The notes under the pieces were generated by a model, which ran no database searches, had not been told where the DNA came from, and saw only the letters and a list, made by a program, of their open reading frames with translations. Made by a program: the position numbers and the translations under genes. 64,000 nt of DNA, from the NCBI GenBank assembly GCA_963747445.1, contig CAVVFI010000007.1, positions 56,935 to 120,934 of the forward strand, in the 5' to 3' direction. How positions within the stretch are numbered: position 1 is the first letter of the stretch; the number at the start of each line of letters is the position of its first letter. Positions 4,310-53,779 of the stretch are shown one piece after another. The stretch is from an uncultured Gammaproteobacteria bacterium. GTDB taxonomy: Bacteria > Pseudomonadota > Gammaproteobacteria > Xanthomonadales > Xanthomonadaceae.

Positions 4310-5587
<1,278 letters not shown>

Positions 5588-49316: not shown

Positions 49317-49994
49317 CCGTCCCATCCATGCACTGATATCACGGATTTCCTCGGGACAAACCGCATGCGGCATGGGGTAGTGGTGCCAGTCGACATCGAA
49401 ACCCAGCTCGCGCAGTAATCCCGCGCTGCGCTCGCCCGCGGCAAACGGCACGACTGGATCGTGGTCGCCATGGGCCAGGAAAAGCGGTTGCACGCTGGCG
49501 CCCGGGTGCAGGTCCGAGGCTGCTCGCGGCGCCATGGGCAGATAGGTCGACAAACCCACCAGTCCCGCCAGCGGCGTATCCCGCCGCAAGCCGCACGCCA
49601 GCGCCACCGCGCCACCTTGCGAGAAGCCCGCCAGGATCAAGCGTTGCGGCGGCACCCCTCGCCCGGCCTCGCGCGCGATCAGTGCTTCGACCTGCGCGAC
49701 CGACTCCAGCACCCCGGCGCTGTCGGCGCGCTCGCCGCCAGCCAGTTCATCGGCACTGAAGTTGCGGATGTCGTACCAGGCACGCATGCGCATGCCATTG
49801 TTGATCGTGATCGCCCGCATCGGCGCATGCGGAAACACGAAACGCAAGGCCGGCCAATCCGGCCGCACCAGCTCGGGCACGATCGGCGAAAAGTCATTGC
49901 CATCGGCCCCCAGGCCATGCAGCCACAGCACGGTCCATTGCGGGTCGGGGGCGGTTTCGTGTTCGACGGTTTCAAGGAGTTGGGCATTGGTCAT
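49284..49994 (-). CDS. Phospholipase/carboxylesterase (YpfH/EstB-like)
   Basis: LHGLGADG, GFSQGG, HGDHDPVV and PMPH motifs. Confidence 0.93.
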   Translation of the reverse strand: MTNAQLLETVEHETAPDPQWTVLWLHGLGADGNDFSPIVPELVRPDWPALRFVFPHAPMRAITINNGMRMRAWYDIRNFSADELAGGERADSAGVLESVAQVEALIAREAGRGVPPQRLILAGFSQGGAVALACGLRRDTPLAGLVGLSTYLPMAPRAASDLHPGASVQPLFLAHGDHDPVVPFAAGERSAGLLRELGFDVDWHHYPMPHAVCPEEIRDISAWMGRRFSSGRYSSG

Positions 49995-50052
49995 GCCCCA
50001 TTGTCGCCAGATTTGCGCCCGGGTGCCGGCCGGGACATCCCGCACGCCGCCG

Positions 50053-50835
50053 TCAGACCGCCGTGTAGCCACCATCGACCGCCAGCACCTGGCCGGTGAT
50101 GTGGCTGCCCGCATCCGAAGCAAACAGCAACGCAGCCCCCTTGAGGTCCTGGTCGCCGCCAAGCCGCCTGAGCGGTGCGTTGCCGATCAAGGCCTGCTCA
50201 CCGAGGTGGTCGATCACATCCCGGGTCATCCTGGAGGGAAAGAAACCCGGCGCCAATGCGTTGACGGTGATGCCCAGCGGCCCCCACTCGGCAGCCAACG
50301 CGCGCGTGAAGTTGACCACCGCGCCCTTGGCACTGTTGTAAGCGATGGTCTGCAGCGTGCCTGGCGGATTGCCACGCAGGCCCGCGATGGATGCGATGTT
50401 GACGATGCGACCATGGCCGTTGGGGATCATCGACCGCCTGGCGATCTGCTGGCTGAGCAGGAACAGCCCGCGCACGTTGACGTCGAAGACCTTGTCCCAG
50501 GCCTGCAGCGGGTAATCCTCGGCCGGCGCCCCCCAGCTGGTGCCGGCATTGTTGACCAGCACATCGATGCGACCCATGCGTTCGAGTGCCGCATCCGCCA
50601 GCGCGACCACGCCATCCGGGCTGGCCACGTCGGCGGCCACCCAGTCGACGTCTATCCCGCGCGCCTGCAGGTGCGCCTGCGCGTGTTGCAGCTCTTCGGA
50701 CTTGCGTGCCGACAGCAGCACGCGTGCGCCGTAGTCACCCAGGGCCTCGGCGATTTGCAGGCCAAGGCCACGCGATCCGCCGGTGACCAGCACCGTGCGA
50801 CCGTCCATGTCGAACAACCTGCGTTCGGGGTTCAT
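50053..50835 (-). CDS. Short-chain dehydrogenase/reductase
   Basis: TGGSRGLG, NNAG and YNSAK motifs. Confidence 0.95.
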   Translation of the reverse strand: MNPERRLFDMDGRTVLVTGGSRGLGLQIAEALGDYGARVLLSARKSEELQHAQAHLQARGIDVDWVAADVASPDGVVALADAALERMGRIDVLVNNAGTSWGAPAEDYPLQAWDKVFDVNVRGLFLLSQQIARRSMIPNGHGRIVNIASIAGLRGNPPGTLQTIAYNSAKGAVVNFTRALAAEWGPLGITVNALAPGFFPSRMTRDVIDHLGEQALIGNAPLRRLGGDQDLKGAALLFASDAGSHITGQVLAVDGGYTAV

Positions 50836-50852
50836 GCGACAGTCGCTCCATT

Positions 50853-50891
50853 CAATCCTGGCCGGCAATCCTGGCCGGCAATCCTGGTCGG
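50853..50891. repeat. 13-bp tandem repeat CAATCCTGGCCGG x3
   Basis: Read directly, between the tRNA 3' end and the SDR start. Confidence 0.85.
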
Positions 50892-50950
50892 GTGCATGGC
50901 CGTGCAGGCAATGGCCCTGGCAGACGCTTGCACCTGCGGCAACCGGAGTT

Positions 50951-51272
50951 TGGTGGGCCCACCAGGACTCGAACCTGGAACCAAGGGATTCGCATGTCCC
51001 GGGGGTTTCCCTCCGGTGCGGACTATCTCTTCACCCTTCGACGATGCGGATGGGGTGCGGGACGCTCGAGCCTGTGATCAAGGGCACTGCAGCCCTCAGG
51101 TAGTCTCTGCACCTTCCGGCGGTGTACCGCCGGCTTGGCTCAGGGTTGCCACCGCCCGCGCCAGGCGCGTCGCTGAGGTTTCCCTGAATTCATCCCGATC
51201 CCGTCCGTGCATTCCGGCACGGCGGCACCTTCTCGATGAGTCCCCTGCTCTAACCAATTGAGCTATGGGCCC
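50951..51272 (-). tRNA. ileX: tRNA-Ile2 (anticodon CAU), intron-split; exons 51272-51236 and 50990-50951
   Basis: Joined exons GGGCCCATAGCTCAATTGGTTAGAGCAGGGGACTCAT|AATCCCTTGGTTCCAGGTTCGAGTCCTGGTGGGCCCACCA fold into a 77-nt cloverleaf with encoded CCA; resembles E. coli ileX; located downstream of rpoD. Confidence 0.95.
50991..51235 (-). ncRNA. Group I self-splicing intron (IC3-like core), 245 nt
   Basis: IGS GUG pairs with exon CAU (U-G wobble); P3 GGGAUG/CGUCCC; P/Q AAUUCAGGGAAAC and GGCAACCCUGAGCCAAG; R GAAGGUGCAGAGACUA; S AAGAGAUAGUCC; GAAA-capped P9; terminal G. Confidence 0.95.
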
Positions 51273-51341
51273 GTGAAACGATCTTACCCAATCCCCGCCG
51301 CCTTGCAGCAGTTGCACAACAATCCGGATTATCCTTATTTG

Positions 51342-51761
51342 ATGAAATCCGATCTACGCTGCGTGGGTTGCGCACGACCACTGTCCGGCCGGCAGCGGCG
51401 GTTCTGTTCGCTGGCATGCAAGAACCGGGATACCAACCACCGACACCAGAGCTATGCGAGCCAGCAGGCCCGGGGCCTGCGGCGGAAAATGCAGCTGATC
51501 GAGGAGGCCGGTGGCTGCTGCAGCCAGTGCGGTTACAGGCGCAACATCGCCGCCCTCAGCTGGCACCACCGGGACCTGGCCGGCAAGGCCTTCAACATCG
51601 ACGTGCGCGCCATCTCCAATCGCAGCGAGTGCGAGGTCAGGTCCGAGATCTCGAAGTGCACGCTGCTTTGTGCCAACTGCCACGCCGAAGCGCACCACCC
51701 GCACCTGTCGATCCCCACGCCGGTACGCAGAAACGACAACGGCCGCAAGCGCGACCGTTGA
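51342..51761 (+). CDS. Free-standing HNH endonuclease with N-terminal Zn finger
   Basis: CVGC...CSLAC; GGCCSQCGY...LSWHH...LLCANCHAEAH; 139 aa from ATG 51342, no obvious SD. Confidence 0.88.
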   Translation: MKSDLRCVGCARPLSGRQRRFCSLACKNRDTNHRHQSYASQQARGLRRKMQLIEEAGGCCSQCGYRRNIAALSWHHRDLAGKAFNIDVRAISNRSECEVRSEISKCTLLCANCHAEAHHPHLSIPTPVRRNDNGRKRDR

Positions 51762-51800: not shown

Positions 51801-53699
<1,899 letters not shown>

Positions 53700-53730
53700 C
53701 AGGCGTGTCACCGGGTTGGAATGGTAAGGA

Positions 53731-53779
53731 GTTGGCACCAGGAACGGTGCCGGTAACGCGTTGGCACCAGGAACGGTGC
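53731..53779. repeat. 20-bp direct repeat GTTGGCACCAGGAACGGTGC x2 upstream of rpoD
   Basis: Copies at 53731-53750 and 53760-53779, each with a GCACC-N6-GGTGC palindrome. Confidence 0.88.

Follow-up and report, generated by a model that had tools for sequence, protein, structure and literature searches.

In an uncultured gammaproteobacterium of the Xanthomonadaceae, the gene for tRNA-Ile2(CAU), orthologous to ileX, is very probably interrupted between tRNA positions 36 and 37 by a 245-nt group I intron that has no open reading frame (ORF). The gene lies on the minus strand of a 64,000-nucleotide stretch of contig CAVVFI010000007.1 (assembly GCA_963747445.1, positions 56,935 to 120,934), which is called the window here and whose own positions are used throughout. 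The original prediction, made from the letters of this DNA, gave the coordinates of the split gene exactly (50951-51272) and left its strand unstated. The intron is an undescribed member of a well-known class and not a new kind of intron. Two things extend what is known: the gammaproteobacterial structural subtype to which it belongs and, above all, its free-standing HNH partner, encoded next to the split tRNA.

Identity of the interrupted tRNA gene

When exon 1 (GGGCCCAUAGCUCAAUUGGUUAGAGCAGGGGACUCAU) and exon 2 (AAUCCCUUGGUUCCAGGUUCGAGUCCUGGUGGGCCCACCA), both read 5' to 3', were joined, ARAGORN folded them into a 77-nt cloverleaf with the anticodon CAU and an encoded CCA, as had been predicted. 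The stems of the spliced tRNA comprise seven acceptor, four D, five anticodon (including one G·U) and five T pairs. The intron begins with CGAGAAGGUG, ends with ...ACAUGCG and is inserted directly 3' of the anticodon, between CUCAU and AAUCC. CUCAU immediately precedes the intron in all 19 aligned homologues and in every homologue listed, AAUCC immediately follows the terminal G in all homologues, and the exons are intact and nearly invariant.

The gene is taken to be the ileX orthologue because of its match to Escherichia coli tRNA-Ile, its position beside rpoD and the C4-G69 and C5-G68 pairs of its acceptor stem. Across 5,426 complete E. coli genomes, the best full-length match of the spliced tRNA was an annotated tRNA-Ile (82% identity); the matched genes are of the CAU-anticodon ileX/ileY type, with a median of two matches per genome. 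The matched E. coli tRNA-Ile gene also lies just downstream of rpoD, and this linkage is kept in most of the gamma- and betaproteobacterial loci fetched. That the upstream neighbour in the window is rpoD is supported by matches of its product to all six sigma-70 Pfam regions. The C-terminal 398 amino acids of this RpoD are 86% identical to the Luteimonas protein and 84% to that of Lysobacter daejeonensis; together with the closest named relatives of the HNH protein, all Lysobacterales, this makes the earlier naming of Xanthomonadaceae correct at roughly the rank of family or order. The C4-G69 and C5-G68 pairs are those that serve TilS as identity elements in E. coli; the discriminator is A73 and position 20 is U. 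Lysidine modification turns tRNA-Ile2(CAU) into a reader of AUA, a codon that is rare but used, with one example in rpoD and one in the neighbouring short-chain dehydrogenase/reductase (SDR) gene. The match to E. coli tRNA-Ile and the rpoD-ileX synteny uphold the predicted identity of the host tRNA.

ARAGORN labels every CAU tRNA as Met, which would be compatible with an elongator or initiator tRNA-Met(CAU) as the host. This is highly improbable, as the best matches across the E. coli genomes are annotated as tRNA-Ile, the C4-G69/C5-G68 pairs and A73 discriminator (both taken here to be tRNA-Ile2 features) are present, the rpoD-ileX synteny holds and the gene is homologous to the tRNA-Ile gene of Azoarcus.

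As had been anticipated for standard tRNA callers, the gene was either missed or mislabelled: default ARAGORN reported zero tRNAs in the 64 kb, and with introns allowed it found the split gene, placed the junction 2 nt upstream and called a tRNA-Arg(CCG). The shifted intron would also end in G (...ACAUG). However, the shift puts C at position -1 and destroys the invariant CAU/GUG pairing of P1, the joined CAU form matches E. coli tRNA-Ile over its full length (at 82%), and position 20 is U whereas bacterial tRNA-Arg has A20. In relatives the homologous gene is labelled Gln, Arg, Ser or Met, so that the junction reported by ARAGORN floats. The same ambiguity has been described for this program and resolved by requiring U at -1 and G at omega, the final intron nucleotide (Williams 2020, bioRxiv 10.1101/2020.01.27.920355). 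The tRNA-Arg(CCG) label was rejected because of the C at -1, the broken P1 and the U at position 20, and the probability that the host is tRNA-Arg is negligible.

Structure, class and distribution of the intron

The tRNA-Ile2(CAU) intron matched the Rfam family Intron_gpI (RF00028) with 54.4 bits (gathering score 50, E 4.9e-11, model positions 1-253, window positions 50999-51290, minus strand). This match is far beyond chance, and Intron_gpI was the only Rfam family to reach its gathering score in the 64 kb; nine homologous loci are also above the threshold (50.9-71.5 bits). A group I structure was drawn by hand on the window sequence and counted on a MAFFT alignment of 19 tRNA-Ile2 introns (Table 1). 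Standard pairs were found in 94.1% of 1271 cells, compared with 34-44% when the 3' partners were slid by 1-3 columns. Changes on both sides occur in 31 of the 69 pairs, and none of 500 column shuffles matched the observed value on any measure. No variation is seen in P1 (C-G, A-U, U·G, C-G), in P6 or in P7, which has a bulged A and agrees with the Rfam consensus GAGACUA...UAGUC; P2, P6a, P8, P9 and the two-pair P9.0 show compensatory variation. The internal guide GUG, at intron positions 8-10, pairs with the CAU of the exon, and every homologue examined has U at -1 and G as the last intron position (omega G). The predicted features of the insert, namely its length of 245 nt, its place right after the anticodon, the GUG guide, the terminal G and the group I core elements, can all be read in the sequence or are supported by covariation, and the covariance-model match that had been suggested as a check was obtained.

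The closest known system is the Azoarcus tRNA-Ile intron (PMC13168695; row Aol6.Ile2.5Ug of the Williams seed alignment). It shares with the window intron the host gene, the 36/37 site, the CAU/GUG P1 with its U·G and the terminal G, a correspondence of site and P1 that the original prediction had already pointed out, and in addition the order of P2 to P9, the GAAA loop on P9 and the lack of an ORF. The two introns are 56% identical in a global alignment and differ in length (245 nt in the window versus 205 nt). Between P7 and P3' the window intron has a 37-nt insert, made up of a 30-nt hairpin and a linker, whereas Azoarcus has GAC at this place; the J8/7 and P3 sequences also differ. P5 of the window intron is CCUCAG/CGGUGG, without the 11-nt motif CCUAAG/UAUGG read in P5 of Azoarcus, which we take to be the tetraloop receptor for L9; P5 varies among relatives. 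Both features of the strict Azoarcus-type IC3 definition, the short P7-P3' linker and the 11-nt receptor in P5, are thus absent from the window intron. As its P7-P3' insert carries a covarying hairpin, the intron belongs to the Ile2.5Ug class by its site, and not to the Azoarcus structural subtype.

Ile2.5Ug (Azoarcus type) is one of the four classical classes of bacterial tRNA introns (bioRxiv 10.1101/2020.01.27.920355), and 5292 split tRNA genes have been mapped in approximately 80,000 genomes (Williams, bioRxiv 10.1101/2020.01.27.920355). The window intron falls into this class by definition, with tRNA-Ile2 as host, insertion at position 5 of the anticodon loop, U at -1 and G at omega.

According to the P7-P3' segment, tRNA-Ile2 introns sort into three types. 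In the Azoarcus type (204-223 nt; Azoarcus, Polynucleobacter and Neisseriaceae) P7 leads to P3' via GAC and the extra hairpin is absent. The gammaproteobacterial type, which includes the window, has the insert CCUG-RGGRC...GYCCU-UGAUNA-CAGG plus a linker ahead of AGCGUCCCG, and the Burkholderiales type has a different insert in the same place. The distal stem of the extra hairpin covaries (GGGC/GCCC, GAGC/GCUC, GAAC/GUUC, GCGC/GCGC and GGAC/GUCC). A P7-P3 hairpin is also found in the Williams seeds Mga42.Leu.1Ug, Pam37.Asn.4Ug, Mba55.Phe.2Ug and Dba165.Lys.2Ug and in a Myxococcota tRNA-Leu locus (L037), all of which differ from the window in host tRNA and insertion position. The segment in Mga42 (GACUA-ccug...uaauaa-c-agg...AGCGUCC) and that in the window (CCUG...UUGAUCACAGG...AGCGUCCCG) are nearly alike. 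Since introns of other tRNAs have it too, the hairpin is not specific to the window but a module that recurs among bacterial tRNA introns. With this hairpin and its different P5, the window intron is a natural variant to set against that of Azoarcus, structurally the best-known small group I ribozyme.

A scan with the core pattern (GAGCCAAG...GAAGGTGNAGAGACTA), using one genome per species, gave at least 120 loci. Nearly all of those listed are group I introns in tRNA anticodon loops, from many isotypes and phyla, and among the matches listed 23 independent genome loci have the same split tRNA-Ile2 with the same exon/intron layout. Carriers among these matches include a Lysobacter sp. metagenome-assembled genome (MAG; 88%), Lysobacter (now Aerolutibacter) daejeonensis (85%), Luteimonas aestuarii (85%), a Rhodanobacteraceae MAG (81%), Steroidobacteraceae, Woeseiaceae, Pseudomonadales and other gammaproteobacteria, together with Burkholderiales, Polynucleobacter and Neisseriaceae. 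Many metagenomes carry the split gene as well. The same layout was present in 13 further loci fetched via the neighbouring HNH protein, with Lysobacter sp. F6437 (90%), Rhodanobacter umsongensis, Thermomonas brevis (complete genome) and an Algiphilus MAG among the carriers. In addition, one public run of soil DNA contains a contig of 875 nt that is the same as window positions 50866-51740 except for one mismatch.

In a full-text literature search, no paper connected the term 'group I intron' with Xanthomonadales, Lysobacter or Luteimonas. The suggestion that such an intron would be new in Xanthomonadaceae therefore holds in so far as none of the papers searched names it for the order; the split gene itself is already present in public Lysobacterales genomes. 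tRNAscan-SE 2.0 was not built to find group I introns, and where Ile2 seemed to be lacking, in over 20 complete genomes, its authors name a possible group I intron as the cause (PMC8450103). The genomes in File S5 of that paper (Azoarcus, Acidovorax, Burkholderia, Polynucleobacter, Rhodoferax, Isosphaera, Desulforudis and others; PMC8450103) are betaproteobacteria, Planctomycetes and Desulforudis, with no Xanthomonadales or Lysobacterales. Neither the gammaproteobacterial sub-lineage nor the HNH neighbour is described with the published Ile2.5Ug class or the File S5 list. Unless group I introns are modelled, such genomes seem to lack an AUA-reading tRNA or are given a false tRNA-Arg, tRNA-Gln or tRNA-Ser.

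Two betaproteobacterial loci (L003, Polynucleobacter; L038, Burkholderiales) have a second 5' half of tRNA-Ile2 approximately 190-230 nt upstream of the split gene. This half reads through an uninterrupted anticodon loop and then stops (...GACUCAUAAUC in L038 and ...GACUCAUAA in L003); it resembles a fragment of an intron-less allele that recombination or an integrated element may have left behind. In L033, L095 and L099 (Pseudomonadales and a Gammaproteobacteria MAG), the split tRNA-Ile2 has the reverse orientation with respect to rpoD (convergent), and the introns at these loci have an extra hairpin of approximately 40-70 nt within the P1 loop. The core pattern was also found in the archaeal-labelled bins L011, L040 (Pacearchaeota) and L062 (Methanosarcinaceae MAG), the last of which has the P7-P3 hairpin type of the window. 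For similar archaeal cases, mis-binned bacterial contigs have been suspected (Williams 2020, bioRxiv 10.1101/2020.01.27.920355).

Table 1. Positions of the split tRNA-Ile2 gene, the elements of its intron and the neighbouring features in the window, with related loci in Patescibacteria
Feature	Coordinates	Strand	Basis
Split tRNA-Ile2(CAU) gene, ileX orthologue, whole	50951..51272	-	ARAGORN on joined exons, E. coli match, rpoD neighbour
Exon 1, 37 nt, tRNA positions 1-36, ends ...GACUCAU; U36 is the -1 base	51236..51272	-	Sequence
Exon 2, 40 nt, AAUCCC...CCA, tRNA positions 37-76; encoded CCA 50953..50951	50951..50990	-	Sequence
Group I intron, 245 nt, no ORF of its own	50991..51235	-	Rfam RF00028 and covariation
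P1: exon C-A-U and intron C paired with intron G-G-U-G guide; U·G is the 5' splice site	51226..51238	-	4 pairs invariant, 19/19
P2 hairpin	51201..51225	-	Both-side changes in 9/9 pairs
P3 5' strand, pairs with 51058-51064, pseudoknot with P7	51191..51197	-	7 pairs, 100% paired, 2 compensatory
P4-P5-P6-P6a domain	51111..51187	-	P4, P6, P6a 100% paired; P6a 5/6 compensatory; P5 71% paired
P7 5' strand, bulged A, guanosine-binding helix, pairs with 51020-51025	51101..51107	-	6 pairs invariant, 19/19
Extra hairpin between P7 and P3', P7.1-like, conserved asymmetric loop UUGAUNA	51071..51100	-	9 pairs, 100% paired, 16 gammaproteobacterial sequences
P3 3' strand	51058..51064	-	Same helix as 51191..51197
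P8 hairpin	51032..51057	-	5 pairs, 99% paired, 2 compensatory
P7 3' strand, UAGUCC	51020..51025	-	Pairs with 51101..51107
P9.0 (2 bp) around P9 with GAAA tetraloop	50992..51019	-	P9.0 2/2 compensatory (GC/GC to AC/GU); P9 5/6
Terminal guanosine (omega G), 3' splice site	50991	-	G in every homologue examined
Possible -10 element TAAGAT, 8 nt upstream of tRNA 5' end	51281..51286	-	Inferred only, from alignment of relatives
HNH endonuclease gene, 139 aa, divergent from tRNA, start 70 bp from its 5' end	51342..51761	+	PHROG HNH families
Terminator-like hairpin after rpoD	51737..51760	-	
rpoD (sigma-70), upstream neighbour marking the orthologous ileX locus	51801..53738	-	NCBIfam RpoD equivalog 880.6 bits; synteny
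Split tRNA-Thr(UGU) with HNH gene, Patescibacteria	L113 74-734, L096 3568-4202, L026 3814-4432		HNH sense

Transcription, splicing and AUA decoding

Contigs of RNA that are 80-100% like the window and cover the tRNA gene and intron were found in four metatranscriptomes and four further RNA runs. Their depth, from tens to approximately 1200, is zero outside 50944-51279, as expected of a discrete, stable RNA rather than of genomic DNA. The metatranscriptome contigs show transcription and cannot prove splicing. In run X36 a 222-nt contig is wholly intronic, with zero exon depth, and gives a weak hint of excised intron RNA in a relative. An exact skip of 245 nt (junction 50990/51236) was present in contigs of 250-290 nt from three metatranscriptomes (X22-X24). 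It was rejected as spliced RNA since the flanks are unlike the window, and it is most simply an intron-less ileX of other species. Other apparent skips were rejected because their different anticodon arms mark them as other tRNAs. The runs with the coded organism labels X26, X27 and X37 are mixtures, each with several sequence variants.

A TAnnAT element aligns 6-9 nt before the tRNA 5' end in approximately nine of 12 related loci. Together with the terminator-like hairpin after rpoD, it points to a separate promoter for the tRNA.

Homology with the pre-tRNA-Ile intron of Azoarcus suggests the following course. Transcription of ileX would start at a promoter of the gene itself, immediately after the rpoD terminator, and the intron would fold into its P3-P9 core. 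The exon CAU would pair with the intron GUG to form P1, in which the U36·G wobble would mark the 5' splice site, and a free guanosine bound in P7 would attack this site. The terminal G (50991) would take the P7 pocket and the 3'-OH of U36 would attack the 3' splice site, so that CAU would be joined to AAUCC and the anticodon loop restored. The tRNA ends would be trimmed, and TilS would then make the lysidine. Judged by its homology and conservation, the intron is almost certainly self-splicing.

Several results weigh against a functional, self-splicing intron in the only ileX of the genome. The Rfam score is only 4 bits over the threshold. The single-sequence minimum free energy fold of the intron (-106.1 kcal/mol) is no better than those of shuffled sequences (z -1.17) and did not recover the core, as is expected of a pseudoknotted, G+C-rich ribozyme; it was set aside for covariation. 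P10 pairing with the 3' exon is not evident, and a scan for a consensus sigma-70 promoter found nothing. Some of the RNA contigs span the 3' splice site and indicate unspliced RNA, or DNA in the libraries. The exact 245-nt skip sits in contigs with foreign flanks. Finally, the search for a second ileX covered the 64-kb window, and an intact copy may exist elsewhere in the genome.

With the tRNA scan limited to 64 kb, two ileX-type genes present in some bacteria (as the median in E. coli illustrates) and unspliced RNA in the metatranscriptomes, the split gene might be a dead copy, AUA being read by an intact tRNA-Ile2 or by a tRNA-Ile3 with anticodon UAU encoded elsewhere. Dead sequence would not be expected, however, to keep every core helix by compensatory change across gamma- and betaproteobacteria, nor its exons intact and nearly invariant. 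The gene occupies the orthologous ileX locus beside rpoD, and no second exon copy or other CAU tRNA was found within the 64-kb window. Nor does tRNAscan-SE find another Ile2 gene in the complete genomes with an Ile2 intron, more than 20 in number (PMC8450103). A dead copy is thus very unlikely.

The split gene is instead probably the sole source of tRNA-Ile2, and so probably essential; if it is the sole copy, it is reasonable to regard splicing as essential too. Essential decoding of AUA, a codon present in rpoD itself, appears to depend on self-splicing in Lysobacter, Luteimonas, Rhodanobacter, Thermomonas and other gammaproteobacteria, and the cultivable carriers allow the need for splicing to be tested in vivo.

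The HNH endonuclease gene beside the split tRNA

The protein encoded by the gene divergent from the split tRNA (Table 1) matched two PHROG HNH endonuclease families (E 4.9e-17 and 3.6e-16). The motif CxxC...HH...N...CxxCH..H is conserved in 13 homologues, and the N-terminus is zinc-ribbon-like (CxxC...C..C). Pfam domain PF01844 is carried by two members of the family; Pfam and NCBIfam gave no HNH match on the window protein itself, a PDB sequence search with it returned chance-level matches only, and an exact look-up of the 139-aa product found no record. The database record of the window itself apparently has a shorter product of 90 aa that starts later (P0010). The family comprises at least 132 clusters, with Lysobacter, Rhodanobacter, Thermomonas, Oleiagrimonas and Algiphilus as named members, and the closest named relatives are all Lysobacterales.

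Linkage of this gene to the intron was assessed at loci fetched via the HNH protein and not via the intron (ten metagenome contigs and four genomes). A split tRNA-Ile2 lies 65-110 nt upstream of the HNH gene, and divergent from it, in all 13 loci with readable upstream DNA. The pairing persists at loci that lack rpoD or have it 2.5 kb away (L121, L125, L127, L129, L133 and L134). Many intron-bearing loci have no HNH gene, for example Luteimonas, in which the spacer is 130 nt, and a 47-aa HNH remnant is found in L025.

More distant homologues of the HNH protein are encoded inside group I introns of other tRNA genes. In Patescibacteria, introns of 546-586 nt in tRNA-Thr(UGU) genes encode one in sense orientation within their 5' part, and the copy in L026 has an internal stop. 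In a Bdellovibrionales MAG (L019 4747-5441, minus strand), a tRNA(CAU) gene is split after U33 by a group I intron of approximately 620 nt, whose P1 loop holds a homologous HNH ORF in antisense (5034-5381). The family therefore occurs in three arrangements: free-standing in Lysobacterales, antisense in the P1 loop in Bdellovibrionales and sense in tRNA-Thr introns in Patescibacteria. If intron and nuclease gene do move together, as considered below, these would be natural snapshots of a free-standing endonuclease becoming intron-encoded.

Linkage, patchy presence among intron-bearing loci, decayed copies and intron-borne relatives form the pattern expected of a homing endonuclease gene and point to the HNH gene as a candidate free-standing homing endonuclease. 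It plausibly drives, or drove, the spread of the intron by cutting intron-less ileX alleles (collaborative homing). Tentatively, and as a possibility short of an even chance, intron and HNH gene may form one mobile unit, in which the HNH enzyme would cut intron-less ileX at the anticodon-loop insertion site or close to it and repair would copy in both.

Against a role in homing, the linkage could reflect shared ancestry within one order, and the target site is hypothetical. The HNH gene may be unrelated to the intron and, whether selfish or domesticated, simply occupy the spacer between rpoD and ileX in a single order. The named carriers are all Lysobacterales or Nevskiales, so that the arrangement may have been inherited vertically; many intron-bearing loci do without the gene; and in E. 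coli the spacer is filled by a different gene (mug) on the opposite strand. An unrelated gene would not, however, readily account for a split tRNA 65-110 nt away in all 13 protein-fetched loci, even where rpoD is displaced or absent, nor for distant homologues inside tRNA group I introns (sense in L113, L096 and L026, antisense in L019), and the remnant in L025 and the internal stop in L026 fit a gain-and-decay cycle of homing endonucleases. An unrelated HNH gene is a serious possibility, though not a probable one.

Collaborative (trans) homing, in which free-standing nucleases act with ORF-less phage introns, has been reviewed (PMC3984707); examples are F-CphI with the psbA intron of cyanophage S-PM2 (PMC6083498) and mobE with the nrdB intron of T4 (PMC2790892). 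As in these two systems, the window has an ORF-less intron and a nuclease gene just outside the interrupted gene, and mobE, like the window nuclease, is an HNH enzyme. The phage cases concern protein-coding genes and were shown by experiment, whereas the window arrangement concerns a tRNA gene on a bacterial chromosome and is known from sequence alone. An endonuclease of a cyanobacterial tRNA-fMet intron has also been reported (Bonocora & Shub 2001, as cited in PMC3984707). As far as that citation goes, it and the window HNH protein are both tied to a group I intron in a tRNA anticodon loop. The window HNH gene lies outside the tRNA gene and on the other strand, unlike that of the tRNA-fMet enzyme, which is reportedly encoded inside its intron and is said not to be of the HNH type. 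A literature search found no paper describing the arrangement of ORF-less intron and free-standing nuclease for a bacterial tRNA intron. If functional, the HNH linkage would take collaborative homing beyond phage protein genes into tRNA genes of bacterial chromosomes, and would offer a family for comparing every stage of the association between endonuclease and intron.

Other genes lie between the HNH gene and rpoD in L133 (Thermomonas brevis, where a GH92 glycosidase gene is among them) and in L125 and L127, and at these loci the HNH-tRNA pair is intact. A Joint Genome Institute contig encoding the same HNH protein has a phage-type integrase nearby.

In the window, a long ORF (49762..51261, plus strand, 499 aa) runs opposite the SDR gene and the tRNA/intron; it was rejected as an artefact of high G+C (67%). 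The spacer that separates the SDR start from the 3' end of the tRNA holds three tandem copies of a 13-nt unit (CAATCCTGGCCGG), the third with one change (50853-50891).

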